From an uncultured Desulfobacterales bacterium (GTDB lineage Bacteria; Desulfobacterota; Desulfobacteria; Desulfobacterales; JAHEIW01), in contig CAZJHF010000004.1 of the NCBI GenBank assembly GCA_964545505.1, positions 1-29,823 on the forward strand: 29,823 nt of DNA, written 5' to 3'. Positions 2,996 to 22,418 of this stretch are shown here, one piece after another. The notes beneath the pieces were generated by a model. That model saw nothing but the letters and a program-made list of their open reading frames with translations. It searched no databases and had not been told where the DNA came from. Position numbers and translations under genes: made by a program. How positions within the stretch are numbered: the first letter of the stretch is position 1; each line of letters opens with the position of its first letter.

Positions 2996-3054
2996 GGTTA
3001 CAGTGTTCAGGTGTCAGTCCTTTTGATCGACCCTGACACCTGACACCTGAAACC
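2996..3054. repeat. Palindromic element A: 7-bp tandem-repeat arms (AGGTGTC / GACACCT family), 15-nt spacer
   Basis: Left arm ggttacagtgttcaggtgtcag (2996-3017) and right arm ctgacacctgacacctgaaacc (3033-3054) are inverted repeats at 18/22 positions. Confidence 0.9.
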
Positions 3055-3082
3055 ATTTATATTAACCGGAAGTCAGCGGCCA

Positions 3083-3739
3083 GTGATGAATAAAATGAAG
3101 ACCTATAAACGACTGACATTAATTTGCCTGCTGGTTGTGCTGATGGGTACCGCCTGTTCAGCCGATACCGATTATCGGGTGAAATGGGTTGCAGACGGCG
3201 ACACAATTGTGCTGACTGAAGGGTCGAAGGTGCGCTACATCGGCATTAATGCGCCTGAACTGCCGCGTAAAGACCATGTTGGCGAACCTTACGCTGCTGA
3301 GGCCAAGCGGTTCAATGCCCGGTTGGTCAACCAAAAAAGTGTACGCCTCGAATTCGACATCGAACCCAACGACCGCTTTGAAAGACGCCTGGCCTATGTT
3401 TTTTTAAAAGACGGCACCTTCGTTAACGCTGAAATGCTCTCAAATGGCTACGCTTATTTGCTGTATGTGCGGCCAAATGTGAAGTATCAGGCCAAGTTGC
3501 TTGCTACGCAGCAGGCGGCGATGTCGGCCAAAAAGGGCATCTGGTCCAAATGGCGCGAGCCGAGTGCAACCTATATCGGCAACAAAAGATCACGCCGCTT
3601 CCATCTGGCCACTTGCTCATCGGGCAAACGCATCAAGCCCAAAAACCGTATCATCTTTAAGAGAAAATGGGATGCATACTGGGAAGGCTACGCACCGGCA
3701 AAACCGTGCATGCCGGTGTTTACAATACCGCAGGATTAA
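3083..3739 (+). CDS. Thermonuclease (SNase-like) family protein with N-terminal signal/anchor and C-terminal Ada-type metal-binding-like domain
   Basis: VADGDTI, VRYIGINAPE, DRFERRLAYV, VNAEMLSNGYA and AKKGIW are SNase motifs. Hydrophobic N-terminus LTLICLLVVLMGTAC. C-terminal GNKRSRRFHLATC...GYAPAKPC. The start may be ATG 3086 or 3095. Confidence 0.9.
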   Translation: MMNKMKTYKRLTLICLLVVLMGTACSADTDYRVKWVADGDTIVLTEGSKVRYIGINAPELPRKDHVGEPYAAEAKRFNARLVNQKSVRLEFDIEPNDRFERRLAYVFLKDGTFVNAEMLSNGYAYLLYVRPNVKYQAKLLATQQAAMSAKKGIWSKWREPSATYIGNKRSRRFHLATCSSGKRIKPKNRIIFKRKWDAYWEGYAPAKPCMPVFTIPQD

Positions 3740-3748
3740 TATCGCTAA

Positions 3749-3844
3749 AATAATGGAATACTGGGATGATGGCATCTGAGTCGATCAATAATACAATTCT
3801 GTTACCCAATATTCCAGAATTCCAACATTCCAATCTTCCATACT
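3749..3844. repeat. Palindromic element B: 8-bp tandem-repeat arms (AATNNTGG / CCANNATT), 33-nt spacer
   Basis: Left: aataatgg aatactgg gatgatgg (3749-3772). Right: ccaatatt ccagaatt ccaacatt ccaatctt ccatact (3806-3844). Lies between the convergent nuclease and fusA genes. Confidence 0.85.
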
Positions 3845-3913
3845 AAACAGCTAACCCAAAGCAATGTTTGCTTCAAATCTGCTGAAAGTCCCTAAAGTTT
3901 TGATTACATTTGA

Positions 3914-5986
3914 CTATTCTTGGTTCCGCTTGGTTTCTTCGATAATTTTATCGGCGCTCTGAGCCGGGACCTCATCATAGTGAGAAAATTCCATCGTAAA
4001 CATTCCCCGTCCCCCGGTCATCGAACGCAAATCTGAAGCATAACTTAAGAACTCCGCCATGGGCACCTGGGCATTAATCACCTGATTTTTACCGGCATTG
4101 TCCATACCCAGGACTTTGCCGCGGCGGCCATTGAGGTCGCCCATGATATCGCCCATAAAGTCTTCCGGTGTGATCACCTGCACTTTCATGATGGGCTCAA
4201 GCAGGGTCGGCGTGGCACTCTCGATGGCCTTTTTAAATGCCAGTGAACCGGCAATCTTAAATGCCATTTCGGACGAATCCACCTGGTGATAGGAACCATC
4301 ATCCAGGGTTACTTTGAAGTCTACCGTCGGGAAACCGGCCAGCACACCTTTTTGAGCGGACTCAACGATGCCCTTTTCCACAGCCGGTATATACGTTTTG
4401 GGGATCACGCCGCCGACAATAGCATCCACAAATTCGAAACCTCTGCCGCGGGGCAGGGGTTCTATTTGAATCCAGCAGTCACCGTACTGGCCATGACCGC
4501 CGGTTTGCTTTTTATGCTTGCCCTGCACCCTGGCTTTGCCTTTTATGGTTTCACGGTAGGGAACTTTGGGTGTATTCAGCTGCGCTTCAACGTTAAACTT
4601 TCGCTTAAGTTTGTCCAGCGTCGTTTCAATATGGATCTGTCCCAACCCCGAGAGCAGGATTTCTTTTGTTTCGGAAATGCGATCCAGTTTGAGAGAAGGA
4701 TCTTCTTCCAGAAGCTTGGTTAAGGAAATAAAAATCTTATCTTCATCCCCTTTGGATTTTGCGCTCATGGCAAAAGAGATCAGGCTGGGAAGCGGCTCTG
4801 CGCAGGCATATTGAACTTTTCCACTGCTATCGCATAATGTATCGCCGGTGGCGGTTTCCTTTAATTTGGCTACGGCAACAATGGCTCCCGGACCGGCCCC
4901 GGTTGCTGCTTTTTGTTCCTTGCCGGCAATGGAAAGGAGTTGCGTAAAGCGTTCTTTTGTGTCCTTATTCGGGTTGTAAAAGGTACCATCGCTTCCCAGT
5001 TTACCGGAGACAACCCGGAATATGGTCAACCGACCCGCATAGGGATCCGCCAGCGTTTTGATCACATATCCCGAAAAGGGCTCATTTTCATCCGGTGCCT
5101 TTTCGATTTCGGTGCCGCTGTCCGGATCAACAGCTTTTATTGATCCGCGATCGATTGGAGAGGGCATGCTTGTAACGATAAAATCCATTAACAGATCGAT
5201 GCCGATATTTTTGGTCGCTGATCCGCAGATTACCGGCACGAAAGTGTGTGACAGCGTTCCGTTGCGCAAAGCGGCGTTTAATTCTTCATCCGATAGTGCT
5301 TCACCTTCAAGATATTTTTCAATTAAACTATCGTCAGCCTCGGCAATATTTTCAACCAGGGCCTCTCTTTCACTTTCCACCAAATCCTGCATGTCAGCAG
5401 GTATGTCTTCCTTTTTGGCCTTGCCGTCGGCAGCATAAATAAATGCCTGATTGCGAATCAGGTCGACAACACCTTTAAACTCAGATTCCGAACCGATGGG
5501 CAATTGCAAGATGATGGGTTTAGGTTCGAAGCTGACTTTGGCATCTTCAAATGTGCGGTTGAAATCAGCCCGCTCGCGGTCCAAGCGGTTGATGAAAATG
5601 ACGCAGGGCAAATCAAATTCTTTGGCAAATTCCCATGCCAGCTCTGTTTGGACCTTGACCCCATCAACAGCGTCCACAACGACCACGATACCATCGGCAG
5701 CCTGCATGCAGCTTTTGGTATCTGAGAAAAAATTTTGATCACCCGGGGTATCAATCAGGTTGATGGTATGATTTTTCCAGCTGAATTGGTGAAAACCACT
5801 GCTGATACTCGACTGGCGTTTAAGCTCTTCGGGCTCAAAATCCAAGGTTGAATTACCGTCATCAACGCTGCCCAACCGATTAACAACACCGGAATCATAC
5901 AACAACGCTTCTGCGAGCGATGTTTTGCCGGCGCCCCCATGACCTATCAGTGCGATGTTTCTGATACGCTCCGCCTTTTCACTCAT
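3914..5986 (-). CDS. fusA: Elongation factor G, divergent paralog (EF-G2/FusA2 type)
   Basis: GHGGAGKT (G1), DTPG (G3), NRLD (G4 variant), GSA (G5), domain IV KKQTGGHGQYG and GSYHQVDSSEMAFK, and SMTGGRG. 690 aa, outside an rpsL-rpsG-fusA-tuf context. Confidence 0.93.
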   Translation of the reverse strand: MSEKAERIRNIALIGHGGAGKTSLAEALLYDSGVVNRLGSVDDGNSTLDFEPEELKRQSSISSGFHQFSWKNHTINLIDTPGDQNFFSDTKSCMQAADGIVVVVDAVDGVKVQTELAWEFAKEFDLPCVIFINRLDRERADFNRTFEDAKVSFEPKPIILQLPIGSESEFKGVVDLIRNQAFIYAADGKAKKEDIPADMQDLVESEREALVENIAEADDSLIEKYLEGEALSDEELNAALRNGTLSHTFVPVICGSATKNIGIDLLMDFIVTSMPSPIDRGSIKAVDPDSGTEIEKAPDENEPFSGYVIKTLADPYAGRLTIFRVVSGKLGSDGTFYNPNKDTKERFTQLLSIAGKEQKAATGAGPGAIVAVAKLKETATGDTLCDSSGKVQYACAEPLPSLISFAMSAKSKGDEDKIFISLTKLLEEDPSLKLDRISETKEILLSGLGQIHIETTLDKLKRKFNVEAQLNTPKVPYRETIKGKARVQGKHKKQTGGHGQYGDCWIQIEPLPRGRGFEFVDAIVGGVIPKTYIPAVEKGIVESAQKGVLAGFPTVDFKVTLDDGSYHQVDSSEMAFKIAGSLAFKKAIESATPTLLEPIMKVQVITPEDFMGDIMGDLNGRRGKVLGMDNAGKNQVINAQVPMAEFLSYASDLRSMTGGRGMFTMEFSHYDEVPAQSADKIIEETKRNQE

Positions 5987-6132
5987 TATGGTACCTCTTT
6001 GTGTTGGTTTGTGACGAATAAATTTTTAAACGTGATTCAGTATCTTTTATCTTCGAAAAAATCAAGTCCAAAATAATCTGCAGTTCAATCTGAAATCAGA
6101 TCGCGCTCGACAAAACCGTCGGCCGGCGACGA

Positions 6133-6918
6133 TTACCCATCGCCGGGTTTATCAGAAAAATTTGATTCAGATAGATTGCTTTCCGGCCGCAGGAGCATAA
6201 AAAACTCACGATTGCCTTTTGGCCCGGCTACAGGGGAAGGATACACGGATTCGGGCTTAAGGTGCCGGCTGCGGAAATAATCTGCTAAATTTTGGATAAC
6301 CTGTTCATGCTGCTGCGGATCACGCACCACGCCACCTTTGCCAACCTGACCTTTACCGACTTCAAACTGCGGTTTGATCAAAGCCATGATCGAGGCATTG
6401 GGTTTCATAAACTGAATGACAGCCGGGACGATCATTTTCAGTGAAATGAAAGCGACATCAATGGTAATCAAATCGACGTGTTCCGGCAGAGCGTCTGCTT
6501 TCAGGTAGCGAGCATTGGTCCGCTCCATGACGATCACGCACGGGTTCTGGCGAATTTTCCAGGCCAGTTGCCCGTAACCGACATCTACAGCGTAAACCCG
6601 ATGGGCTCCATGCTGCAGAAGGCAATCGGTAAATCCGCCGGTGGATGCGCCTACATCCATGCATATGGCCGCGGTCACATCAACGGAAAAATGTTGCAAA
6701 GCGGCTGCAAGCTTAAGCCCGCCTCTGCTGACATACGCGATATCGCCACCTTTACATTCAATAGTATCCGAGGACGAAACTGAAAACCCGGGCTTATCCA
6801 CCCGTTGACCGTTGACAAAAACCTTTCCGGCCATAATCGTAGCCCGGGCGCGCTGACGACTGGCAAACCATCCCTTTTCAATAAGCATTAAGTCCAATCG
6901 GTGTTTTTTGGCAGACAC
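6133..6918 (-). CDS. tlyA: TlyA family rRNA 2'-O-methyltransferase (S4 domain plus FtsJ-like MTase)
   Basis: RLDLMLIEKG S4 start, YVSRGGLKL, DVGASTGGFTDCLLQHGA, VDVGYGQL, LIKPQFEVG and GPKGNREF. GTG start. Confidence 0.95.
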   Translation of the reverse strand: MSAKKHRLDLMLIEKGWFASRQRARATIMAGKVFVNGQRVDKPGFSVSSSDTIECKGGDIAYVSRGGLKLAAALQHFSVDVTAAICMDVGASTGGFTDCLLQHGAHRVYAVDVGYGQLAWKIRQNPCVIVMERTNARYLKADALPEHVDLITIDVAFISLKMIVPAVIQFMKPNASIMALIKPQFEVGKGQVGKGGVVRDPQQHEQVIQNLADYFRSRHLKPESVYPSPVAGPKGNREFFMLLRPESNLSESNFSDKPGDG

Positions 6919-6975
6919 AAGATCCTGATGGGAATTGCAATGAAAGCTGAAAACCTGTGTTTTGCATGCAGTTGC

Positions 6976-8898
6976 TTAAACGACCTGACGATTCGGCCAC
7001 CGGGTGTTCGAACTGGCAGCTGAGGCCAGCAACTGCTTGGTGCATTGGACAATGGCTTTGGCGTCCACACCGTATTTTGACCGCAAAACCGCCTGCGGAC
7101 CATGTTCGACGAATTTATCCGCAATGCCGATGCGTTCAAGCTGGAAACCGGTGACACCGGCGTCATAGAGCGCTTCTAAGACCGCACTGCCGAATCCGCC
7201 CTGCCGAATATTTTCCTCGACGGTAATGATGCGGGGGATCTTTTTGGCCCAATCGCTGATTAAATCGATGTCCAGGGGCTTTACAAATCGGCAGTTGATG
7301 ATTGTCGCTGATATGCCTTCCTGGGTCAACTCGGAATAGGCATCCAGGGCCTCACAAACGGATTGGCCAATGGCCAGGATCAGCACATCTTCACCTTCTT
7401 TGAGAATCTCGCCTTTTCCGATCTCCAGGGGCCGAATGGGGTTCTCGAGAATTACCCCGACACCGGATCCCCGGGGATACCGCAATGCTGTCGGCCCATC
7501 ATGTTCAAGGGCAGTTAGCAGCATCCGGCGCAGTTCGTTTTCGTCCTTCGGTGCCATGACCACCATGTTGGGTAAATTTCGCAAATAACATAAATCAAAA
7601 AGGCCATGATGGGTGGGCCCGTCTTCACCCACGATGCCACCGCGATCGAGGGCGAATACAACCGGCAGCGATTCAAGACAGACATCGTGCACAATCTGGT
7701 CGTAGGCGCGCTGTAAAAAAGTAGAGTAAATGGCCACCACCGGCTTGAGTCCCTCTGTGGCCAGGCCTGCGGCAAAAGTAACCCCATGTTGCTCGGCAAT
7801 TCCAACATCAAAGAATCTTTCCGGAAATCGTTTTGAAAATTGCCCTAAACCGGTACCCTCGGGCATCGCTGCTGTAACGGCGTTGATTTTTTCATCCGTC
7901 TCGGCCAGCTGAAGCATGGCATCGCCAAAAACCTGGGTATAGGACGGGTGCTGGCTGGCGATATCCAGGCAGTCGCCGGTTTCAACCTCAAAGCGGGTGC
8001 ACCCGTGAAAGTATACCGGATTTTCTTCAGCCGGCGGATATCCTTTGCCTTTCTGGGTGGAAACATGCAAGAGCACGGGCTCTTTGAGGACCTTAATATT
8101 GTTTAGAATATCAATCAAATGGTTTAATTTGTGCCCGTTAATGGGTCCGAAATATTCAAAATTAAACGCTTCAAACAGCATTCCGGGCGTCACGAATGCT
8201 TTCAGACTGTCTTCAGTTTTTTTGGCAACCTTATAAATGTCGTCACCAAATTTGGGCAGGGATTTCAAAAATTCTCCAAGTTCTTTGCGAAGCTCACGCA
8301 CTTTTTTACCGGAAAACTTGCGGCTCAAAAAAGAGGATAGGGCACCGACATTAGGCGAAATTGACATTTCATTGTCATTGAGGATGACCAGGAGGTTTTT
8401 GTCTTTGAGCGTGTCTCCGGCCTGATTGAGGCCCTCAAAGGCGATGCCGGCGGTCATCGATCCATCACCGATCACGGCAATCACCTTGGCATCTTCGTGC
8501 TTTAAATCCTTGGCACAGGCGATACCCAGGCTGGCGGATATCGATGTGCTGCTGTGGCCGGTGCTGAACGCATCGTATGCGCTTTCGCTACGGCGGGTAA
8601 ATCCGGATATACCCTCCAACTGTCGCAACGTATTGAATTGATCCCGTCGGCCAGTCAGCAATTTGTGCGCATAGGCCTGATGACCGACATCCCAGATGAC
8701 TTTTTCCCGCGGGGTATCAAACACATAATGAATCGCAATTGCCAGTTCGACGGCTCCCAGGCTGGGGGCCAGATGACCGCCAGTTTTCGAAACGACTTCA
8801 ACAATGGCTATTCGAATCTCTTCTGCGAGTACCGGAAGCTCGTCGCGGGACAGTTTCTTTAAATCCGCCGGTGAATTGATCTGTTCTAAGAGGCTCAA
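6976..8898 (-). CDS. dxs: 1-deoxy-D-xylulose-5-phosphate synthase
   Basis: [36 protein letters not shown]...NDNEMSI and DVGIAEQH. The true start is most likely TTG at 8898 ([10 protein letters not shown]), with GGAG 9 nt upstream; the ORF-track extension to 9099 runs inside ispA. Confidence 0.96.
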
Positions 8899-8923
8899 TG
8901 AATTTTTCTCCAATTTTGTGCGA

Positions 8924-9835
8924 TTAGCAATTTCTATGGCGAATGTAGCGCGCAATAGCTCGCAATGGTTCGGCTTTTTGATCAAAGGCATCCAGCGCGG
9001 CCAAAGAATTTTCGACCAGTTGATCGGCAAATGCTTTTGATTCCGCCAGGCCCAGCAGGGCAGGGTAAGTCGTTTTGTGGCGCTGCTCATCGGTGCCAAC
9101 GGCTTTACCCATTATTTCAGGGTCGCCCTCGACATTTAAAATATCATCTGTTACCTGAAAGGCAAGTCCTATATTTTGAGCATAGCGTTCAAACATTTGA
9201 ATCTGGTCCAAATTCACGCCCGCCAGTTCTGCTCCGCAACGGACGGAGGCTTCAATCAAAGCGCCGGTTTTCAAGCGGTGCATGGATTTCAGCTCCGCCA
9301 GGGTCAACGGTTTTTGTTCTGAAGCCATATCCAGCATCTGGCCCTGAATCATACCGCAATAACCGGCAGCGTGCGAAATGTGTTGAATCACGCGCAGCCA
9401 TTTGAAGGCCTGCTCCGGTTTGTTGACGGCAATGGATGACAGCATTTGAAAAGCCAGTGTCAGCAGGGCGTCTCCAGCCAAAATGGCGGTGGCTTCATCA
9501 AAAGCGTTATGGCAGGTGGGCTGACCTCTGCGCATGTCGTCATCGTCCATCGCCGGGAGATCATCGTGAATCAGCGAATAGGTATGGATCATTTCAAGGG
9601 CGCAGGCGGCCGGCAGGACCTCCTGTGAGTCGCCATCAATCGTTTCGGCTGCCGCCAGGCATAAAATGGGTCGAATACGTTTGCCACCGGCCAGCAGCGC
9701 ATAGGACATGGCTTGCAGCAGACGATCGGGCTCATCTGCCGTTTTAAGGATGGCTTCCAGGGCCTGATTGATCCGTTGAGCGTTGTGCGCAAGGTATGCC
9801 TTCAGGTCAAACATCTTTAAATCGTTATTCGTCAC
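8924..9835 (-). CDS. ispA: Polyprenyl (farnesyl/geranylgeranyl) diphosphate synthase
   Basis: GGKRIRP, first Asp-rich motif [29 protein letters not shown] and second motif FQVTDDIL. An alternative start is ATG 9814 (MFDLKAYL). Confidence 0.95.
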
Positions 9836-10067
9836 TCGATTCGCCTTGGGGCCTGAATGGCTTGGTAACCACCTGACCTTCGGTATTTTTTAGTAAAACA
9901 GAAACTTTTTTTTCTGTCTCGTCCAGCTTGGCCGAGCAAAACTGAGTCAGTTTTATGCCTTCTTCAAATTTTTTTATCGCCTTTTCCAGCGGCAGTTCAC
10001 CTTCCTCAAGCTCCTGCACAATGCGTTCAAGCTGTTTCATGGATTGTTCAAATGTTTTTTGGGCCAT
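9825..10067 (-). CDS. xseB: Exodeoxyribonuclease VII small subunit
   Basis: TFEQSMKQLERIVQELEEGELPLEKAIKKFEEGIKL motif, located between xseA and ispA. Confidence 0.96.
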   Translation of the reverse strand: MAQKTFEQSMKQLERIVQELEEGELPLEKAIKKFEEGIKLTQFCSAKLDETEKKVSVLLKNTEGQVVTKPFRPQGESSDE

Positions 10068-11430: not shown

Positions 11431-11600
11431 GGGGTTATGATTTCAGCGGTCATTTTTACATTGTCGATAGATTGCCGGACAATGGGCTTTTTTATTTTAT
11501 TCAACGTCCGATAAGTTATATTATGTAAACTTTTAGCCAAGCCTGCGCCAGTGCCCGGTTTTTGAGACCCATATTTGGCCACATCGCCCTTTTGCAGCCC

Positions 11601-11870
11601 TCAGTGAGACCCGTATTTCTCAAGCAATTCCCGAACGGCTGGTATAATGTACAGGTCTTCATGCGGTCTGTTCGCCAGTTGCGTGGCCAGGATTTGGGTT
11701 TTTTCAGCAATAGACTTGTGTTTGTCCATAACAAACATCTGTTGGCCCCGGACTTTGCAGAAACCGCTTTTGACCTTGAAACCTGTCGTTTTCAGGTTCT
11801 GCTCTGAAACCGTTATCTGCAATCGCTCGGCCAAGTCTATCAGTTCTTGATACAATTGATCGGGTTTCAT
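11601..11870 (-). CDS. Small hypothetical protein (89 aa)
   Basis: Compact ATG-started ORF with globular composition, in the same orientation as and directly upstream of xseA, filling an otherwise empty gap. Confidence 0.8.
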   Translation of the reverse strand: MKPDQLYQELIDLAERLQITVSEQNLKTTGFKVKSGFCKVRGQQMFVMDKHKSIAEKTQILATQLANRPHEDLYIIPAVRELLEKYGSH

Positions 11871-11890
11871 TTTTTAAGATACAGCAAGTC

Positions 11891-11918
11891 TTGAAAATGG
11901 CGTCTGATGTGTTATTAT
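11891..11918 (+). promoter_or_regulatory. Putative sigma70 promoter of the BI-1/YccA gene
   Basis: TTGAAA (11891-11896), 16-nt spacer, TG-n-TATTAT extended -10 (11913-11918). RBS AGGAGG at 11943-11948. Confidence 0.5.
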
Positions 11919-11954
11919 GTATTTTCAACAAACTAAACCATTAGGAGGCCATAA

Positions 11955-12656: not shown

Positions 12657-12692
12657 TTGCCGTCTAAAAACGGCTACTATCAAATAGTTTTA

Positions 12693-12771
12693 ACCACAGA
12701 GCCCACAGAGATCACAGAGAATTTTATAAAGTTGGTTTTTCGATCTCTGCGGGCTCTGTGTTCTCTGTGAA
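12693..12771. repeat. Palindromic element C: 9-bp tandem-repeat arms (NNCACAGAG / CTCTGYGNN), 25-nt spacer
   Basis: Left: accacagag cccacagag atcacagag (12693-12719). Right: ctctgcggg ctctgtgtt ctctgtgaa (12745-12771). Lies between convergent genes and ends 5 nt from the glmM stop. Confidence 0.9.
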
Positions 12772-12776
12772 AAATT

Positions 12777-14135: not shown

Positions 14136-14246
14136 TGGTTACCTCAATAGTCTGTAAGGAGTTACGGTAATGGTCTAAAACGGCTGAATACCGCATTGCA
14201 GGACAATTCAATCCAAGTCCCCCCCCTGGTGAATGTAAGGCAATCC

Positions 14247-15494: not shown

Positions 15495-15550
15495 CGCGCA
15501 ACCTCAATCCGGATGGGTCTTTACTGCAAATATACCAAATGGCCACGGCG

Positions 15551-17236
15551 CTAGAGCGTGGCCTTATCTTTTTGTCTGACCTGTTCCTTAATTCGTTGAA
15601 TGTGCCCGCGCCCCAGACCTTTTACTTCGCATCCGAGTTCAAAATATCGGCGAATTTTTTTATCATCCAGAATACCAAAACAATCGATGATTGCAGCGGG
15701 ACGGCCAATCAACTCTACGACCGCCTCGGGTTCAAGTTCCAGGTATTCCTGATGGCGAACGGCAAAAATGACGGCATCAGCAAACGACAGTACTTGTGAC
15801 AGGTCGCTTTCAACCTGGATTTCATCCAACCGATCCTGATTGCGGAAAAAACGACTCATTGAATGATTCGGTCCCGGATAGGTATCCTGTTTTTCAAGTT
15901 CCCACCAGCGTTTGACATAGGGGTCATTAACAGCGATTTCAGCGCCCATTTCAGCTAATTTGCGAACGATGATCTCCGAGCCGCTATAGCGTGTATCGCC
16001 CACACCTTCACGATAGGCTGCCCCTAATAAGACAACCTTTGATGCCGCGACAATTTTACCCATGTTGCGCAACGCATCCCGCACCAGTTGTGGTACCCGC
16101 AATGAACGCGAGTCGTTGATATCGATGGCTGCCGGTGTGATTTTAAATACATTGTCTTCAAATCCCATCAGGGTATGGTACGCCCACACCCCCAGGCCGC
16201 CGTCTTTGGGCAAGCAATAGCCACCAATACCCGGGCCGGGGAAAATTATATTGGAGTGGGTCGGCCGGACCTTAATAGCTTCAATTACCTTGATCAGATC
16301 CACCCCATTGCGTTCGGCAAAAACACTCCATTCATCCAGAAAAGCCAGCAGCGTGGCCCGAAAAGAATTTTCCACGATTTTGCAGGTTTCACTTTCAATC
16401 GGCCGATCCAACACCGTCAGCGGATATTGTTCGACATTTAATATTTCCGATAAAAACTCGCGCACGCGTTTTCGCGCCCTTTCGTTGATGCCGCTGCATA
16501 CCCGCCAGAAATCACGTACCGAGGCAACATAATTACGACCCGGCATAACGCGTTCAAAGGAATGGGATAAAAGGGGCTCTGTGTCGGTCAAGCCTCTTTT
16601 TTCAAATGCCTTCTTAACGATGGGATAGGCCACATATTCCGTTGTGCCTGGTGGTACGGTGGTTTCAATTAAAACAAGACACTCGGGGCTGATCTTTTCG
16701 CCGATAATTTTCAGACTGTCTTCAAGCGCCGCAATATCGGCATGACCCTGTCGGACGTTGCCGAAGGTTTCCTTAAAATAGTCGCATTGCACATCCACAA
16801 CGACCACATCGGCCAGACGCAGCGCATCAAAGGTATAGGTGGCGATCAATGTTTTTTTCTGCTTGACGCAACGTTCGATCAGAGGGGCGACTTCGGGGTC
16901 TTCAGCTTCGACCGGTGCAATGCCTCTGTTAATATAAGGTATTTTCCAGTACGATCGCGTTGACGGTCGCTGCATGCCAATGACAAATTTGCTGGGGTTG
17001 CCTTCCGCATCAACCGAATCGGCCACAACACCGGCCATCACGGCCCCGACAAAGCCTACCCCCATCACCACGACGATCTCCCTGCCCTTCAAGCGCTCCT
17101 CTTCAACACGGCGCTGGAGATTTTTAAATTCTTTTTGATAGTCTTTTTCATCAGGAAGTTTGAAAATCTCGCCACGCGGGCAAACTGAAACCGGTTCATC
17201 GCTACGCGTATTCTGCTGCTGTTTTGAAACCTGCAT
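15551..17236 (-). CDS. Nucleotide-sugar dehydrogenase (UDP-glucose/GDP-mannose/UDP-HexNAc dehydrogenase family)
   Basis: Rossmann GVGFVG, IETTVPPGTT, KIVEN, catalytic-Cys loop GPGIGGYCLPKD, and LGAAYR...GDTRYS. ATG 17236 is preferred over 17242 because GGAG lies 7 nt upstream. Confidence 0.9.
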   Translation of the reverse strand: MQVSKQQQNTRSDEPVSVCPRGEIFKLPDEKDYQKEFKNLQRRVEEERLKGREIVVVMGVGFVGAVMAGVVADSVDAEGNPSKFVIGMQRPSTRSYWKIPYINRGIAPVEAEDPEVAPLIERCVKQKKTLIATYTFDALRLADVVVVDVQCDYFKETFGNVRQGHADIAALEDSLKIIGEKISPECLVLIETTVPPGTTEYVAYPIVKKAFEKRGLTDTEPLLSHSFERVMPGRNYVASVRDFWRVCSGINERARKRVREFLSEILNVEQYPLTVLDRPIESETCKIVENSFRATLLAFLDEWSVFAERNGVDLIKVIEAIKVRPTHSNIIFPGPGIGGYCLPKDGGLGVWAYHTLMGFEDNVFKITPAAIDINDSRSLRVPQLVRDALRNMGKIVAASKVVLLGAAYREGVGDTRYSGSEIIVRKLAEMGAEIAVNDPYVKRWWELEKQDTYPGPNHSMSRFFRNQDRLDEIQVESDLSQVLSFADAVIFAVRHQEYLELEPEAVVELIGRPAAIIDCFGILDDKKIRRYFELGCEVKGLGRGHIQRIKEQVRQKDKATL

Positions 17237-17530
17237 AAACATTCTCCGTTCACGGTTTAAAGGACTAAATTTAATGGGTATGTGAATAAATTGCCAACGT
17301 TTTTTGAGATTCTAACATAAGCAATTCATAAAGCAAAGATAAATTGCATTTGACGGGCAAGAATGCCATTCTTTTGATTGTTTAAAAACGAAGTTATTTC
17401 AATATGTTATAAGATATATTTGTTTTTTGTTATTGAAAGACCGCCCAAGTTATGATCTAATATGAACAGCTGGTTTCAATTGATAGGAAAGTTGTAATGG
17501 CCTAATTGACTGAGAAAGGAAGCGAGTTTA

Positions 17531-17926
17531 ATGGCACGCATACTGATTATTGATGACGAATCTCAGATTCGATCGATGCTTCGATTGATGCTGGAAAGGG
17601 TCGGCTATGAGGTTATTGAGGCCGCCGACGGTATGGACGGGATCAGGCAATACCGAGATAATCCAGCTGATCTGATCATCACTGATCTGATAATGCCGAA
17701 TAAAGACGGCATTGGCATGATCATCGAACTTAAAAAAGAGTTTCCCAAGGTGAAAATAATCGCCATGTCCGGCGGCGGCGTAAACCGACCCGAGGGCTAT
17801 CTGGATGGTGCCAAAAAACTGGGCGCCACACGTACGCTGACAAAACCGATTGATCGAGATGAAATGATTGACGCTGTAACGGAGACCCTAAAAGCCGACG
17901 CGGCTTCTGCTGAGCCGCCAGTTTGA
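17531..17926 (+). CDS. Stand-alone CheY-like response regulator
   Basis: ILIIDDE, phospho-acceptor LIITDLIMP, IIAMSG and conserved TKP. No output domain. Confidence 0.93.
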   Translation: MARILIIDDESQIRSMLRLMLERVGYEVIEAADGMDGIRQYRDNPADLIITDLIMPNKDGIGMIIELKKEFPKVKIIAMSGGGVNRPEGYLDGAKKLGATRTLTKPIDRDEMIDAVTETLKADAASAEPPV

Positions 17927-18140
17927 TGTCGCCGGCCGCTTTTCGAAGTACTTCCATTCGCGTTACAGTTGATGAAGTTAAAACAAGCCAAACAACCGCA
18001 AAATAGTTTTGTGTTTTTAGGTCGCGACCATATTCCCAATATATTTCAAAAACGGTTGCCGGCAGTTATGGGGGTTGAAGTTCTGCCCGGCAGCCTCACC
18101 TGCTTATTACCAACTCCACTGTCAGCCGGCAACAACCGTA

Positions 18141-18170
18141 TTGTCCTTGCAGATTTTTCCGGATTATACT
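18141..18170 (+). promoter_or_regulatory. Possible sigma70 promoter of the 18235 gene
   Basis: TTGTCC (18141-18146), 18-nt spacer, TATACT (18165-18170). RBS GGAGG at 18221-18225. Confidence 0.4.
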
Positions 18171-18234
18171 AAACTCTCATGCAGACATTTGAAATGCAGG
18201 GCTGCACCTGCCGTGTAGTCGGAGGATATCTAAA

Positions 18235-19173
18235 GTGAAAGCATTTACCATCATATTTGGCCTGACCTTCTTGCTGCCGCAATTGGGCAAAGCCGATATC
18301 ATTTTTTTTAAAGATGGGATGAGAACCGTTTGTCAGGAAAAAGCCTGGGAAGAAGGCCAGGAAGTTAAATGTGAATATGAAGGCACGGTATTGAGCTATC
18401 AAAAAAAAGATGTCCTCCGCATTCAGGAAATAAGAACCCCTAAAAAGACACCGCCTGCTAAACCCATAAAAGCACCTGAACAGCCGGTGGCAGAGACCGA
18501 AAAAAAGACACCGCCCGCTAAACCCATAAAAACACCTGAAAAATCGGCGGCAGAGACCGAAAAAAAGACGCTGCCTGCTAAACCGATAAAAACCTCTGAA
18601 CAGCCGGCCACAGACGTGGTAACGCCTACTGCTGATATCAAGGTATCTGGTTCAAAGCCGAAACCAGACGAAAAGAAACATTTAAAAGCCCCGCCGGTTC
18701 AGCCAACCAGCGTCTCCAACATAACAGGGCTTGAATTTTATAACCCGCGAAGACCGCAGAAATACTGGACCAGCGCTGTTTCCAAACACATAACCTTTAA
18801 AGAGGCCGTTGCGGCCCTGGCCAAACAGTATGATCGCAGCCCCGACTGGATTCAGCAGCACATGGGCGAAACCAATAATCTCGAAGAAATTCATCAGAAT
18901 CTGGCCCGCGACAAATTAAACGCAGCGGTTGAAACGAAGGTGCAGACCCCAAAAAATGTATCCGATACCCTTTTTTACAACCCGCGAAGACCGCACAAAT
19001 ACTGGACCAGCGCGACGGCAAAACACAAAACCTTAAAGGAAGCCGTGAGTGCATTATCGGCGGAGTACGATCGTTCGCAGCAGTGGGTTGAGCAATACAT
19101 GGGAGCGTCGAATCATCTGGACGAAATTCATCAAAACTTGAAAAAACAAAAATTATCGGAATCATCACCTTAA
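18235..19173 (+). CDS. Exported hypothetical protein with Pro/Lys-rich 20-aa tandem repeats and a duplicated C-terminal domain
   Basis: GTG start 9 nt after GGAGG, signal-peptide-like N-terminus MKAFTIIFGLTFLLPQLGKA, and internal repeats visible at both DNA and protein level. Confidence 0.88.
   Translation: MKAFTIIFGLTFLLPQLGKADIIFFKDGMRTVCQEKAWEEGQEVKCEYEGTVLSYQKKDVLRIQEIRTPKKTPPAKPIKAPEQPVAETEKKTPPAKPIKTPEKSAAETEKKTLPAKPIKTSEQPATDVVTPTADIKVSGSKPKPDEKKHLKAPPVQPTSVSNITGLEFYNPRRPQKYWTSAVSKHITFKEAVAALAKQYDRSPDWIQQHMGETNNLEEIHQNLARDKLNAAVETKVQTPKNVSDTLFYNPRRPHKYWTSATAKHKTLKEAVSALSAEYDRSQQWVEQYMGASNHLDEIHQNLKKQKLSESSP
18442..18614 (+). repeat. 60-bp coding tandem repeat, about 2.9 copies (KKTPPAKPIKxxEQxxAETE)
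   Basis: Units begin aaaaagac at 18442, 18502 and 18562 with near-identical sequence. Confidence 0.95.
18736..19152 (+). repeat. Internal duplication of a 60-aa domain (18736-18915 and 18973-19152)
   Basis: FYNPRRPQKYWTS...EIHQNL versus FYNPRRPHKYWTS...EIHQNL; 39/60 residues identical by manual count, offset 237 nt. Confidence 0.95.
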
Positions 19174-19295
19174 AGGCTGATACGGGGTCGGCATTGGCCT
19201 TGATATTTGCCCTAAGACGATCACCAAGGCGCCTGGTGCCGTTTTCTGGCATACGGCAGGGGCTTTTCGGCATCTTCAATACCAAAGGCCGAATA

Positions 19296-19324
19296 TTGAC
19301 AATTCAGCTATTTTCCTGTACGAT
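19296..19324 (+). promoter_or_regulatory. Putative strong sigma70 promoter upstream of the two-TM gene
   Basis: Perfect TTGACA (19296-19301), 17-nt spacer, TACGAT (19319-19324). Confidence 0.7.
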
Positions 19325-19392
19325 TTGATTAAATTATATTGTAATATAGACTATTTATAAAATATAGGAGTATTGTTTTATCGCAGCGGCTT

Positions 19393-19983
19393 TTGCTGGT
19401 TGCGATTTTTTTGAAAGGGCCAGCGTTTATGATATCTTTTAATCGCGATGTAGTTGCACTCGTTCGGATTATTGCAAGCTGCTTGACAGCCGGGTTCCTG
19501 ATTTTCTTCATATCCTCTTTATCCGGTGAGGACCTGATTAAAAACAACAGCACCGTAGCTGATTTAGACCGGATATTAGCCGAAATTAATGTTGAATTGG
19601 ATAGCGGCATCGAAGACCGTATCCGGCAGCTGGGAGAAGTCCCTGCTATCAATCCTTACAAAAAATTCTACTGTGCTGAGCTTGCAAAAGAAATTCATGA
19701 GGTCTCCTATCTCACCGAAAAACAAAAAATCCTTTTTGACGCATACAATGTTCGCGATTTCGAAAACAAATCAAAGCGTCTGGTTTCTTATTCAGAAACA
19801 GCGAATATGGACGCCCTGATGAATGAGCTGGAAATCGTAAAAAGAGAACTGAAAAATTCTGTTAACCTGATTGATAAAAGGCGCAAGAAGCTCGTTCGCC
19901 AGAGGACAGCCTATATTATCCTCTTTTTCGTGCTCTGGATCGCCATCTATTTCTATTATAGCCGCGGGTTTTTGAAACGATAG
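19393..19983 (+). CDS. Hypothetical membrane protein: two terminal TM helices enclosing a helical soluble domain
   Basis: Hydrophobic segments VVALVRIIASCLTAGFLIFFISSL and AYIILFFVLWIAIYFYY. The start may be ATG 19429. Confidence 0.8.
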   Translation: MLVAIFLKGPAFMISFNRDVVALVRIIASCLTAGFLIFFISSLSGEDLIKNNSTVADLDRILAEINVELDSGIEDRIRQLGEVPAINPYKKFYCAELAKEIHEVSYLTEKQKILFDAYNVRDFENKSKRLVSYSETANMDALMNELEIVKRELKNSVNLIDKRRKKLVRQRTAYIILFFVLWIAIYFYYSRGFLKR

Positions 19984-20078
19984 GCCTCCTGTAAATTTTT
20001 CAAACACTTTGTTGAAAATAACAACATTTCCATAGCTCGGTTTGCTGTTGCCAATCGGGTAGTTGAAGCAGATTCGCT

Positions 20079-21635
20079 ATGTATCAATCATTTTACAATC
20101 TGAAAATTAAGCCGTTTCAAATTACGACGGATCCCAAATTCCTCTGGCTCGGTGAGAAGCATAAAGAAGCCCTGGCCACTCTCAAGTACGGCGTCCTTGA
20201 AAACAAAGGGTTCCTCTTGCTCACCGGTGATGTGGGCACCGGCAAAACCGTTTTGATCCACGGCTTGATGAAGATTATCGATGTGTCTGCTATAGTGGCT
20301 GCCATCCCGGATCCCGGACTCAGCAGTATTGATTTTTTTAACTTTTTATCTGAAGAGTTTGGGATGAACCGGCGCTTTGATAGCAAGGGCGCTTTTCTGA
20401 TTCATCTAAAGCACTTTCTTTACAAGGCTTCTTCCGAAAACAAAAAGGTCCTGCTGGTTATTGATGAAGCCCAGAGGCTAAACCACGAGTTGATCGAGCA
20501 AATCCGGCTTTTGTCAAACATCGAGATGGATAACCGTAAATTGATCAACATTTTTTTTGTCGGGCAAAGCGAATTTAATAAAATGCTCAGCGAGGAACGT
20601 CACAGAGCGGTTCGGCAAAGAATTAGCGTTAGCTATCATATCGACCCACTGACCGAGCAGGAAACCCGCCAGTATATCAATCATCGCCTCAATGTTGCCG
20701 GCTGCAAAAAAGAACTTTTTAAATCCGAAGCCGTGCGCAGAATTTATTCATTTTCCCACGGCTATCCTCGACTGATTAATATCATCTGCGACCACGCCTT
20801 GCTTACCGGCTATTCCAGCGGAAAAAAAGTTATCGATGCAGGTGTCATCTTGGAGTGTGAAAAAGAGCTTAGAATCCCCACCGACCAGTCGATGACGCAG
20901 GATAAGAAAACCGAAATTTTTGAGCTCAAGGAAGAAAATCCCTTTAATGTGCTTCAGAATCAATCTACGGGAAAGCGCTTCGGATATATTGCAGTTATTG
21001 TTTTGCTGCTCCTGGCAATCGGTTATTTCTTATTTACGATGCAATCGACGGACGAACCCCGCTGGAAAATGGAGGAAATCGCGCCGCAATCCTATGACTC
21101 CCCGACGTTAAAAGCCAAAGAGGCTTTCGTTCCAGGCGTCGTCGGTGAACAAGCCGCTGAAAAAGATCAACCGAAGCGCAAGCGCTTTGATGAGCAGGCC
21201 ATTGAAGGCAAAAAAATCGAAACATCCAAACAGTCGAACTCGCAGGGTCAAACAGAAGGCGCCACAACAATTCCTAAGGTCAAGCCATTTCCAGATCGAA
21301 AAATCATTATTTACTTCAACCACAACTCCAACGATCTACCCGAACAGGCTTACGAAATGCTTGACCGCATTGCCGGCTTTATGGTCAGCAACCCGGATGC
21401 CATCATCAATATCAGCGGCTATACGGATTCATCCGGTGCCTATAGTTATAATATGAGCGTTTCTCAATTTAGGGCCAACATGGTCAAAGGCTATCTGGTG
21501 GGCAAAGGCGTTGATCCTTTTAAGATCGAAGCGCTCGGACTGGGCCCCAAGAATCCGATTGCCAGCAATACGACTGAAAAAGGCCGCCAAACAAACCGCC
21601 GGGTGGAAATTGAGTTGAATATCGACAAACCCTAG
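20079..21635 (+). CDS. ExeA/GspA-like AAA ATPase with TM helix and C-terminal OmpA-like peptidoglycan-binding domain
   Basis: YQSFYNLKIKPF N-terminus, Walker A GDVGTGKT, Walker B LLVIDEAQ, GYPRLINIICDHALL and TM IAVIVLLLLAIGYFLF. OmpA-type C-terminus: IYFNHNS...GYTDSSG...N...S..RA..V..YL...NRRVEI. Confidence 0.9.
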   Translation: MYQSFYNLKIKPFQITTDPKFLWLGEKHKEALATLKYGVLENKGFLLLTGDVGTGKTVLIHGLMKIIDVSAIVAAIPDPGLSSIDFFNFLSEEFGMNRRFDSKGAFLIHLKHFLYKASSENKKVLLVIDEAQRLNHELIEQIRLLSNIEMDNRKLINIFFVGQSEFNKMLSEERHRAVRQRISVSYHIDPLTEQETRQYINHRLNVAGCKKELFKSEAVRRIYSFSHGYPRLINIICDHALLTGYSSGKKVIDAGVILECEKELRIPTDQSMTQDKKTEIFELKEENPFNVLQNQSTGKRFGYIAVIVLLLLAIGYFLFTMQSTDEPRWKMEEIAPQSYDSPTLKAKEAFVPGVVGEQAAEKDQPKRKRFDEQAIEGKKIETSKQSNSQGQTEGATTIPKVKPFPDRKIIIYFNHNSNDLPEQAYEMLDRIAGFMVSNPDAIINISGYTDSSGAYSYNMSVSQFRANMVKGYLVGKGVDPFKIEALGLGPKNPIASNTTEKGRQTNRRVEIELNIDKP

Positions 21636-21692
21636 CCAGGCCTCTCCATTTAAAAATAATGTTCAATCGGTGCGCTCTTCAAAAATTTTTCT

Positions 21693-21814
21693 GGTTGCCC
21701 GATTTAGCCCGTTGAGCCGGATAAGCCGGCCGAAAATTCCCGTCGCTAGACTTGTGCGCGTTAAAAAGCCTGTTTGCTGACCGCTAAACGGGCTAACGGG
21801 TAACGGGCTCAACC
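21693..21814. repeat. Palindromic element D: 7-10-bp degenerate tandem-repeat arms (AGCCCGTT / AACGGGCT core), 51-nt spacer
   Basis: Left: ggttgcccgatttagcccgttgagccggataagccgg (21693-21729). Right: ccgctaaacgggctaacgggtaacgggctcaacc (21781-21814). Lies between convergent genes and touches the NUDIX stop codon. Confidence 0.75.
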
Positions 21815-22269
21815 TAATGATGTGTGCCGAAGCCGAACTTGGTTTTCAATAATTGCAATGTCGTAGAATTTACCGCGAGGCCGTTAATTTCCTCGGCAGA
21901 TACCCAGCGCGCCTCGACAGCATCATCTCCCGCCGACAATTCTCCGGAAACATATTCAGCCGATAGGTCAATAATGACGTAATGAAAGCGAATGCTTTCG
22001 CTTTCATCCCGTTCGATAACATCGAAAATGTAAATGGGTCTGGCAGCTCGAATTCGAATTCCGGTTTCTTCCAGAATTTCTCTTTCAGCCGCCTGCTGCA
22101 GCGTTTCGCCGATTTCTACGCTTCCGCCGGGAATCGCCCAGAGATTTTTGGCTGGCGCTTGTCCGCGGCGAATGAGCAAAACCCGATCTTCCCGGAACAC
22201 CACGGCACCCACAGCCACCCTGGGATGATCAGGATATTCATTGCTGGGTTTCGATCGGTGCTTTTTCAA
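21814..22269 (-). CDS. NUDIX hydrolase (ADP-ribose pyrophosphatase-like)
   Basis: Complete Nudix box GGSVEIGETLQQAAEREILEETG, with YPDHPRVAVGAVV and HYVIID. Confidence 0.93.
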   Translation of the reverse strand: MKKHRSKPSNEYPDHPRVAVGAVVFREDRVLLIRRGQAPAKNLWAIPGGSVEIGETLQQAAEREILEETGIRIRAARPIYIFDVIERDESESIRFHYVIIDLSAEYVSGELSAGDDAVEARWVSAEEINGLAVNSTTLQLLKTKFGFGTHH

Positions 22270-22301
22270 TATTTTAAAATTCCTTCTTTATTACTGATTT
22301 T

Positions 22302-22418
22302 AGGTGTCAGGTGTCAGTGTTCAGGTGTCAGCAAAAGGAAAATGAAGATGACAATATTAGCTAGATTAAGCCTTCTGTCCCATGTTCCCTGACACCTGAC
22401 ACCCGATACCTGAAACCT
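22302..22418. repeat. Palindromic element E: same 7-bp family as element A, 30-nt arms, 57-nt spacer
   Basis: Left: aggtgtc aggtgtc agtgttc aggtgtc ag (22302-22331). Right: ctgacac ctgacac ccgatac ctgaaac ct (22389-22418). Confidence 0.92.

Follow-up and report, generated by a model that had tools for sequence, protein, structure and literature searches.

Five palindromic intergenic elements, here designated E1-E5, were analysed in a stretch of 29,823 nucleotides (nt) from an uncultured Desulfobacterales bacterium (contig CAZJHF010000004.1 of assembly GCA_964545505.1, positions 1 to 29,823 of the forward strand; the whole stretch is referred to as the window). Each element consists of a left arm of three to four tandem copies of a short unit, a unique spacer of 15-57 nt and an inverted tandem right arm. 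[quoted passage not shown] Comparison of sequences between genomes shows that the arms are kept complementary and that the units within an element evolve in concert; that gain, loss and replacement of whole elements at gene 3' junctions outpace divergence of the flanking proteins; that the same families, with fixed polarity, recur in many genomes and phyla; and that arms of the heptamer family enclose an Avd-like four-helix-bundle gene (PF05635/TIGR02436), with internal-deletion intermediates.

The original prediction, made from the letters of the window, had described this arrangement of tandem arm, spacer and inverted arm, with periods of 7, 7, 8, 9 and about 7-10 nt and spacers of 15-57 nt, and direct reading of the sequence together with repeat finders bore it out for all five elements (Table 1). 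Each has at least three copies of a 7-9-nt unit (periods of 7, 8, 9, 7-8 and 7 nt and 3.0-4.4 copies by Tandem Repeats Finder, TRF), and the arrays oppose each other across spacers of 15, 30, 21, 53 and 57 nt, the left arm of E2 being decayed. At 59-122 bp, without an ORF and with inverted arms, the elements have the size (50-500 bp) and structure of MITEs. Four unit families lie within 30 kb, the heptamer family being present twice (E1 and E5). A second, independent assembly (L001; 99.57% identical, 77 single-nucleotide polymorphisms) carries all five elements unchanged, and they are therefore not assembly artefacts.

Turnover at orthologous gene junctions

Orthologous junctions were compared in syntenic relatives, twelve of which were recovered by a GlmM protein-anchored scan (73-85% identity) and four through SNase homologues (80-88%). 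Gene order is conserved in these relatives apart from the GSDH-like gene described below, and the elements are kept, lost or swapped between families, the families not tracking protein similarity. At the glmM/Bax1-I junction the CACAGAG type of E3 is found in the window, L126 and L129, with an identical 28-nt left arm and spacers that differ. At the same junction L128, L130 and L131 carry a palindrome of the 9-mer CGCAGATTA, L120 and L122-L124 carry other palindromes, L127 has a simple hairpin, and no element is present in L121 or L125 (61 nt). Between the SPL-like and SNase genes, where E1 lies, CAGGTGT is shared by the window and L127 (with a 117-nt spacer), CAGTTGT is found in L122 and L508, CTGGCTN in L506 and CAGA[A/T]GA in L130, with a solo right arm in L507 and, in L509, a decayed arm that has become part of the SPL reading frame. 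At SNase/fusA the TGGAAT unit of E2 is present in the window, L508 and L130, CTGGCTG in L122, L506 and L509, and CAGGTGT in L127 and L507. At AAA-OmpA/Nudix the E4 type is shared with L122, a CGCAAAGnn 9-mer palindrome is found in L127 and L129, and L128 has direct repeats only. Some sites that lack an element in the window are occupied in relatives, by ATTGGTTTA 9-mers and by a second copy of CGCAGATTA at glmM/hyp415.

Positional conservation in all relatives, which the original prediction had named as the behaviour of ordinary terminators, was not what this comparison revealed; retention, loss and family swapping were all seen. The unit families had also been called unrelated. This holds for the sequences, although several of the junction variants lie only one position apart in a CAGnnnn heptamer.

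In L509 (1100-1206) the SPL-like ORF is 12 codons longer, reads through the decayed right arm gcaacgggcaaccgacaacggaaaacggac and ends 5 nt before the SNase start; an element remnant has therefore become coding sequence. The GSDH-like/PVC-type haem-binding-like gene beside E5 (22481-23620) is absent from L122 and L127-L129, the relatives that cover the region, and in these the Nudix gene and the first aminotransferase gene are direct divergent neighbours. L127 has a solo CAGGTGT array upstream of the Nudix gene, at the position of E5, and in L128 the Nudix/aminotransferase gap contains two solo arms, one of TGGAAT and one of CTGACACC. The E3 orthologue of L126 (8114-8276) contains a 37-nt GC-rich palindrome, GCACGCCCGCC...GGCGGGCGGG, inserted inside the third unit of its right arm, and palindromes related to it (CACGCCCGCC) occur in L120. 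Small dispersed repeats are reportedly nested in cyanobacterial hairpins in a similar way (Elhai 2008).

Dispersal of the unit families

The heptamer family was sought with AGGTGTCAGGTGTCAG in one genome per species (596 Gb), and at least 118 loci were obtained. The raw count means little, because by our own arithmetic chance alone should yield a few hundred occurrences of a 16-mer in a collection of that size. Among the matches listed, however, 44 of 118 had (AGGTGTC)n followed by (GACACCT)n within tens to hundreds of nt, in the polarity of the window, versus 6 in the reversed order. The hosts of these palindromes belong to the Desulfobacterota (many metagenome-assembled genomes, MAGs), Acidobacteriota, Planctomycetota, Gemmatimonadota, Chloroflexota, Armatimonadota, Verrucomicrobiota, Bacteroidota and Cyanobacteria; several contigs per MAG carry them, and at least eight phyla have CAGGTGT palindromes. 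Identical copies of E5's 30-nt left arm are present in two other MAGs (L004 and L118). A period-agnostic search of the heptamer loci (0.86 Mb) returned 114 tandem-plus-inverted pairs with about 40 other units, ACACCTG-related heptamers being dominant as expected from the way in which the loci had been selected.

The remaining families are dispersed as well. TGGAATnn palindromes with the same inner CCCAATATTCCA motif as E2 were found in L052, L086 and L114, and AGCCCGTT-type arms in L033, which has the same GGGCTCAACC end as E4, and in L117. The query (CACAGAGnn)3, which has 21 specified bases and for which essentially zero chance matches are expected, matched more than 120 loci in IMG/VR; full CACAGAG palindromes in L407 and L410 share AACCACAGAG...CTCTGTGGTT ends with E3. 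In this family the inverted array followed 43 times and the reverse order was found 0 times. Such fixed polarity argues for copying of whole elements rather than for repeated independent origins. A scan of viral contigs with TGGAATAATGGAATG was uninformative, its matches being mostly AT-rich chance occurrences.

The elements are thus intergenic and multi-copy and fall into several families, multi-copy status being judged by recurrence in relatives and in other Desulfobacterales. The original prediction had proposed a class of non-autonomous, REP/MITE-like elements, to be doubted if the motifs occurred nowhere else in the genome; the elements do behave as dispersed, non-autonomous palindromic repeats, all four families recurring at non-orthologous sites and in other genomes. 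In the wider sample 42 elements lay in co-directional gaps, 11 in convergent and 7 in divergent gaps, against a background of 364, 126 and 127; convergent junctions are therefore not enriched in that sample, and divergent gaps are depleted only about two-fold.

Palindromes seem to insert into palindromes. In a Desulfosarcina MAG (L106, 2828-3132) a repetitive extragenic palindromic (REP)-like palindrome, GGAGCGGCTTCCAGCCGCGAT...ATCGCGGCTGGAAGCCGCTCC, is nested between CAGGTGT arms, and the same palindrome stands alone at hyp415/UDPGDH in a relative of the window (L131, 5658-5829). A Terriglobia MAG (L002, 1104-1365 and 6733-6997) has CAGGTGT arms around inverted arrays of CAGAAGT and CAGTTGN, forming 260-nt 'Russian-doll' palindromes. 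On the IMG/VR contigs L386-L505 (for example L409, 9556-13341, and L387), each viral contig has many occurrences of (CACAGAGnn)3 and of a sister unit, CACGGAGnn; the latter contains GGAGG, and the viral arrays are often solo, forward and a few to tens of nt before start codons.

Association with a four-helix-bundle gene

The original prediction had stated that such arms flank small four-helix-bundle genes in other anaerobes, and flanking of four-helix-bundle genes by such arms was verified. Every four-helix-bundle gene examined has heptamer-arm flanks, the sample comprising five loci in the Desulfobacterota and, in the Gemmatimonadota, a single locus represented by four distinct orthologues. 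The spacers of two heptamer loci, L082 and L055, are long and have coding content. In a Gemmatimonadaceae genome (L082) a TIGR02436/PF05635 protein (E 2.6e-28) is encoded between (CAGGTGT)5 and (ACACCTG)4. Its homologues are orthologues at one locus, between ychF and an H+-pyrophosphatase (H+-PPase) gene, and all have heptamer arms, the units of which differ (CAGGTGT, GAGGTGT, GGGAGAT and GGTGGAA). Within each orthologue the two arms pair at 30/32, 27/29, 22/23 and 18/18 positions (over 18-32 nt), whereas pairing of arms across orthologues is limited to 4-16 positions, except for 24/28 between two units that are one base apart. The arms at this locus have thus undergone concerted, compensatory evolution, which is our strongest evidence that arm pairing is maintained.

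In the Desulfobacterota, a 40-aa N-terminal fragment of the gene lies between heptamer arms in L055. Homologues of this fragment are short proteins, two of which carry as source name and organism the labels four helix bundle protein and Deltaproteobacteria. Three loci (L163, L164 and L165) were chosen through these homologues, without regard to repeats, and all three have CAGGTGT/CAGGTTT arms. The genes of L163 and L164 are full-length and frameshifted; that of L165 has a 68-aa internal deletion and its stop codon lies inside the first unit of the right arm; L086 retains the C-terminal part of the gene only. Taken together, L163/L164, L165, L055 and L086 form a decay series that would end in ORF-less palindromes such as E1 and E5.

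The original prediction had further proposed that the elements could be the empty forms of gene-carrying units. For the heptamer family (which includes E1 and E5) the decay series supports this. For the other three families the proposal found no counterpart: a screen of array pairs 150-2500 nt apart yielded no cargo gene for the 8-mer, 9-mer or AGCCCGTT families and returned mostly ordinary genes that happened to have a separate element on either side. As cargo, a DUF559 gene in L099 was rejected, its flanks having no complementary arrays. GxxExxY genes, also named in the original prediction, were unseen between arms in about 4.2 Mb of loci inspected without a dedicated model run. The 8 nt abutting the right arm of E5 (CATGTTCC) resemble CATGTTTC, the last gene codons in L165 and L086, a likeness that was not relied upon. 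No report tying paired arrays to PF05635 genes was found in a survey that covered the literature incompletely and did not extend to database family descriptions.

Statistical and folding support

The six best inverted repeats of the whole window (I1-I6), together with I10 and I15, all lie in E1, E3, E4 or E5, and the five elements, spanning about 1.6% of the window, contain 7 of the 16 TRF arrays. A strict detector, which called a site only where an exact 6-mer stood twice in tandem and, within 400 nt, so did its reverse complement, gave 2 matches in the window (E3 and E5) versus 0.01 per shuffled window (200 shuffles); a second, alignment-based detector had a null of 0.025. Both automatic detectors are specific but miss E1, E2 and E4, so that their counts are lower bounds.

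When RNA folding was compared with shuffles, the hairpin of E1 reached -26.9 kcal/mol (z -4.7), E3 gave -36.4 and -37.3 kcal/mol (z -6.3 and -7.6) and E5 gave z-scores of -7.1 and -7.05, with a hairpin of -51.5 kcal/mol on the transcribed (-) strand (z -7.1). These elements have stems of at least 20 bp, as in IVS-type elements (20 bp and perfect in E3, about 30 bp in E5, 22 bp at 82% in E1). Taken singly, E2 (z -2.5 and -0.8) and E4 (z -2.6 and -2.4) are weak. Because better-preserved orthologues or family members exist elsewhere (L508 and L130 for E2; L122 and L033 for E4), both are decayed copies and not noise.

Known classes of element set aside

None of E1-E5 was called as an intrinsic terminator by a consensus scan, the counts of which equalled those in shuffles. 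On neither strand is any of them followed by a T-run, and their loops of 15-57 nt compare with 3-8 nt in intrinsic terminators. The roles as bidirectional terminators, RNA stabilisers or recombination sites that the original prediction had named are therefore only putative. One canonical-looking terminator is present in the window, at 19222-19240 (CACCAAGGCGCCTGGTG then a T-run). The window gave no Rfam matches at E <= 1 and no tRNAs. Integron attC sites were rejected, since the arms have no core sites (GTTRRRY/RYYYAAC) and the flanks are syntenic housekeeping genes. The location of IVSs in 23S rRNA helices 25/45 does not apply either, E1-E5 sitting between protein-coding genes.

With REP sequences, bacterial interspersed mosaic elements (BIMEs; REPINs) and bacterial MITEs the elements share much, being short, intergenic, palindromic, multi-copy and non-coding, and in many cases placed directly downstream of a gene; insertions may be nested, and relatives differ in which elements they have. 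Unlike REP/BIME (REPIN) sequences, however, the arms are tandem arrays of micro-repeats and not a single imperfect palindrome of 20-40 nt, and the arm ends carry no GTAG head. No target-site duplications were evident and no transposase partner was found; nor was a RAYT (IS200/IS605-like) partner, for which no dedicated search was made. A MITE derived by deletion from a transposase-bearing element was likewise set aside: a deletion series exists, but the enclosed gene, in the sole full-length form found, encodes a PF05635 four-helix-bundle protein and no known transposase. No direct repeats were evident bordering E1, E5, L163, L165 or L004, the borders of which had no clean empty/filled pair to define them.

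Proposed mechanism and competing explanations

Under the reading that we favour, E1 and E5 would represent the fully deleted, MITE-like form of the four-helix-bundle unit, and E2-E4 would be analogous elements, full-length forms of which were not found. Arrays may grow, shrink and homogenise by replication slippage and by arm-to-arm copying (template switching within the palindrome). The arms may pair in transcripts as a 20-30-bp stem, a putative RNase III substrate by analogy with the 23S IVS of Coxiella, and such a stem would let an element sit in transcribed intergenic DNA at little cost. Once inserted, the element would serve, or be tolerated, as a 3'-end or inter-cistronic hairpin. The elements would be selfish or semi-domesticated units.

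A number of observations weigh against this. Neither a transposase nor a target-site duplication nor a clean empty-versus-filled pair was found, and distribution is the sole basis for inferring mobility. The evidence on the four-helix-bundle gene comes from a small sample of loci and from the heptamer family alone, and the screen for cargo in the other families was negative. The Gemmatimonadota unit is positionally stable over 64-91% protein identity and thus behaves like a resident gene and not like a recent insertion. No remnant of the four-helix-bundle gene, and no PF05635-like segment, is present in the window, and the spacer of E5 showed no significant similarity to the interiors of four-helix-bundle elements (p about 0.2-0.9, local alignment versus shuffles); because of this, the assignment of E1 and E5 is based on shared arms and not on spacer homology. 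Many family copies have arms homogenised to different variants (for example GGTTTCA opposite TGACACC, giving T/C mismatches), and many arrays are solo, so that pairing is not always kept. Folding of the sense strand was better than that of the antisense strand in 24 versus 18 of the 42 co-directional elements (p 0.21; crude gene calls, low power), and in this absence of a bias there is no direct sign of RNA-level selection. Finally, the CGCAGATTA array at glmM/Bax1-I appears to have grown from a conserved local motif, 'tctgcggataa', with 1 unit in L122, 1.5 in L120 and 3 in L128, a gradation that fits slippage in situ.

This last observation is what would be expected if the elements were ordinary 3' hairpins specific to the lineage (terminators, either factor-independent or bidirectional, or stabilisers of mRNA) grown in place by slippage of the stem, without copying between sites, an explanation that we consider unlikely. 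All five elements do lie just beyond stop codons, three of them at convergent junctions; nearly every relative has some hairpin at these junctions; and heptamers are the commonest long simple-sequence repeats of bacteria, ascribed to polymerase slippage, according to Mrazek 2007 as cited in PMC4679880. Local growth is harder to reconcile with the lack of a T-tract and of any excess of consensus terminators over shuffles, with identical units, and even 28-30-nt arms, at non-orthologous sites and in different phyla, with a polarity of 43 to 0, with the enclosure by the same arms of a gene and its deletion derivatives, and with the predominance of co-directional gaps (42 versus 11 convergent and 7 divergent) in the wider sample. 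It is similarly improbable, in our estimation, that the elements are host-selected signals for RNA processing or translation and not selfish DNA, acting as RNase III 'punctuation' between cistrons or as arrays in untranslated regions (UTRs) that bind ribosomes or RNA-binding proteins, with families shared because hosts and phages use common machinery. The frequency of (CACAGAGnn)3 and CACGGAGnn on IMG/VR contigs, often as solo forward arrays before start codons, points this way, as do the position of E1 and E5 28 and 32 nt before the next start codon, the action of RNase III on heptamer-repeat hairpins in Coxiella and H. influenzae, and the published reading of TAACTGA direct repeats just upstream of start codons (PMC4679880). 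Solo CACAGAG arrays were nevertheless rejected as strict 5'-UTR elements, 56 being directed toward a gene start versus 30 facing a gene end, at a median of 75 nt (crude gene calls). E2-E4 moreover lie between convergent genes with no start codon downstream, the close relatives L121 and L125 have a junction without an element, and the decay series of the enclosed gene looks degenerative and not regulatory.

Very unlikely, in our view, is the proposal made for Geobacter metallireducens, that such arrays are binding sites of nucleoid proteins or global regulators, acting on double-stranded DNA and not through pairing of the arms. There, 24, 21 and 8 pairs of opposed tandem repeats of 8, 8/9 and 7 nt were described and IHF/HU-type binding was suggested (PMC2700814), and in our material solo arrays are common, the arms are often imperfectly complementary and folding has no strand bias. 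Against it stand the at least 10 unit sequences in one syntenic region across close relatives, too many for dedicated proteins, and the four-helix-bundle locus, where the unit changes freely and the complementarity of the arms is kept, a signature of pairing and not of a fixed recognition sequence. All three explanations retain appreciable probability.

A more far-reaching reading, which we hold to be doubtful, would make the elements the footprint of one pan-bacterial class of small mobile units built around the Avd-like PF05635 protein, the same units making 23S IVSs on landing in rRNA. The arms would then pair in the transcript and their stem be processed by RNase III, and the pentameric nucleic-acid-binding protein would aid copying to new hairpin-forming sites, perhaps with a reverse transcriptase in trans as for Avd in diversity-generating retroelements; E1-E5 would be parasites or relics of this class. 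It may be speculated that the three to five units per arm mirror a multimeric binding mode.

Relation to known systems

The elements belong to a kind that has been noticed before in single genomes (Geobacter and Xanthomonas) and never explained. In G. metallireducens four classes of 'global regulator binding sites' were described, with 3-5 tandem units of 7, 8 or 9 nt, mostly as opposite-strand pairs; one site is situated between proB and proA, a junction at which the sequence differs in G. sulfurreducens (Aklujkar et al. 2009, PMC2700814). Classes 1-3 are alike in having several families per genome and 3-5 units (GTTGCTYN, TCTCCGTS[Y] and MTYCTGA), and these classes share with E1-E5 the opposed arrays at variable distance, the mostly intergenic and multi-copy occurrence and the difference of a sister species at the same junction. 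They differ in their unit sequences and in their authors' reading as protein-binding sites, and the paper neither connects them with a four-helix-bundle gene nor compares orthologous sites in many relatives, and reports no cross-phylum distribution. In Xanthomonas there are 70-75 convergent pairs of GGGAATC arrays per genome (Rehm et al. 2015, PMC4692102). These, too, are inverted pairs of intergenic tandem heptamers, the length and sequence of which are variable among close species, whereas whether they are single or paired stays the same; unlike the present elements they are G-rich, have been studied as G-quadruplex formers and have one dominant unit per genome in a gammaproteobacterial host.

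The IVS of the Coxiella burnetii 23S rRNA gene has an S23p (PF05635-type) ORF preceded by tandem GACAGAT heptamers of strain-variable number (Warrier et al. 2016, PMC4990558), and RNase III cleaves the 28-bp terminal stem (PMC4990558). It is alike in the decaying PF05635-type ORF, in the tandem heptamers (GACAGAT = CAGATGA) and in the long terminal inverted repeats, and the CAGA[A/T]GA unit is also that of L130 between the SPL-like and SNase genes. In contrast, it lies within 23S rRNA helix 45, whereas the window copies lie between protein genes and have no ORF, and cutting by RNase III is here only predicted. Diversity-generating retroelements have an accessory protein, Avd, to which PF05635 bears a resemblance (PMC10053308).

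The heptamer-repeat hairpin of hmw in H. influenzae is cut by RNase III, which is also required for change in repeat number (PMC12721329). In this hairpin of the hmw1A 5'-UTR of Haemophilus influenzae a tandem heptamer array likewise forms one arm of a long RNA hairpin, but only one arm is an array, and the hairpin is a single-locus phase-variation switch and not a dispersed family. Solo heptamer arrays are common to unrelated phyla, without a known vector (PMC4679880). Among them, the cyanobacterial short tandemly repeated repetitive (STRR) sequences and the Beggiatoaceae TAACTGA repeats are intergenic tandem heptamers, many of them CAGnnnn or its complement, with a cross-phylum distribution (PMC4679880); unlike E1-E5, they are almost always direct arrays (1 inverted case in 170 sets) just upstream of start codons.

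Beyond these single genomes, the design is common in the Desulfobacterales and in at least seven other phyla, with a turnover at fixed gene junctions that keeps pace with species divergence. For at least one family there is a tie to a PF05635 gene, the function of which and its presence in rRNA IVSs have been questions open since the 1990s. If the link holds generally, the origin of IVSs, the role of stand-alone Avd-like proteins and the sharing of heptamers across phyla would become one testable problem. In practical terms, assemblies break at these elements, which look like terminators in annotation and can lengthen ORFs, as in L509; their recognition would help annotation of the genomes of uncultured lineages.

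Position of the elements and other features of the window

The window comes from a Desulfobacterales bacterium and represents a syntenic housekeeping region; close homologues of its SNase carry Desulfobacterales labels. The gene order is purC, ParB-like, SPL-like radical-SAM, SNase, fusA, FtsJ-type methyltransferase, dxs, ispA, xseBA, Bax1-I and glmM, followed by UDP-sugar dehydrogenase, response regulator, AAA-OmpA, Nudix, GSDH-like, two aminotransferases and a 1203-aa ORF. The gene map bore out the placement of the elements, which had been described as just behind stop codons and, for three of them, at convergent junctions. E1 starts 13 nt past the SPL-like stop codon in a co-directional gap, and E5, also in a co-directional gap, lies 62 nt past the GSDH-like stop codon and 32 nt before the Nudix start. 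E2 (SNase/fusA), E3 (Bax1-I/glmM) and E4 (AAA-OmpA/Nudix, abutting the Nudix stop codon) occupy the three convergent gaps roomy enough for an element. The coordinates are collected in Table 1.

Table 1. Coordinates, repeat units and supporting observations for E1-E5 in the window
Element	Part	Position	Unit or sequence	Support and occurrence elsewhere
E1	whole	2996-3054	heptamer CAGGTGT family	variants across E1 and E5: CAGTGTT and CAGGTTT
E1	left arm	2996-3017	CAGGTGT-family heptamers, ggttacagtgttcaggtgtcag	direct reading; inverted repeat I4
E1	spacer	3018-3032	15 nt	
E1	right arm	3033-3054	ctgacacctgacacctgaaacc = (CCTGACA) x3.3	inverted- and tandem-repeat finders
E2	whole	3749-3844	8-mer TGGAATnn	
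E2	left arm	3752-3775	decayed TGGAATnn 8-mers, aatggaatactgggatgatggcat	better-kept orthologues in L508, L130
E2	spacer	3776-3805	30 nt	
E2	right arm	3806-3844	ATTCCAnn 8-mers, about 4 units	TRF period 8, 3.5 copies; family also in L052, L086, L114
E3	whole	12693-12771	9-mer, core CACAGAG	
E3	left arm	12693-12720	three CACAGAG cores, 9-nt period	I6, I10, TRF; 28 nt identical in L126, L129
E3	spacer	12721-12741	21 nt	
E3	right arm	12742-12771	CTCTGTG/CTCTGCG cores, 9-nt period	20-bp stem
E4	whole	21693-21814	AGCCCGTTn / AACGGGCTn	
E4	left arm	21693-21729	AGCCCGTT/AGCCGG units, ggttgcccgatttagcccgttgagccggataagccgg	I15; orthologue in L122
E4	spacer	21730-21782	53 nt	
E4	right arm	21783-21814	AACGGGCT units, terminates on Nudix stop codon	TRF period 7-8; L033 shares terminal GGGCTCAACC
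E5	whole	22302-22418	heptamer CAGGTGT family	
E5	left arm	22302-22331	AGGTGTC AGGTGTC AGTGTTC AGGTGTC AG	I1, TRF; identical 30-nt arm in L004, L118
E5	spacer	22332-22388	57 nt	
E5	right arm	22389-22418	CTGACAC CTGACAC CCGATAC CTGAAAC CT	inverted- and tandem-repeat finders

The independent assembly L001 differs from the window inside the Nudix gene. The sole indel between the two, of 8 bp, is at about 19264 in the hyp312>hyp196 gap, just beyond the terminator-like sequence at 19222-19240. The longest dxs ORF (6976-9099, TTG start) overlaps ispA (8924-9835) by 176 nt, and the gene call in L001 is of 669 aa; the true dxs start is probably downstream of the TTG. The gap between the response-regulator gene and the 312-aa ORF at 18235-19173 contains a 23-nt inverted repeat (18055-18133; 74% complementary, 33-nt spacer), the arms of which have no tandem repeats. 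This ORF has no Pfam match, encodes the least conserved protein of the region among the relatives (48-68% identity) and contains a 60-bp tandem repeat of 2.8 copies with 85% match (18442-18608).

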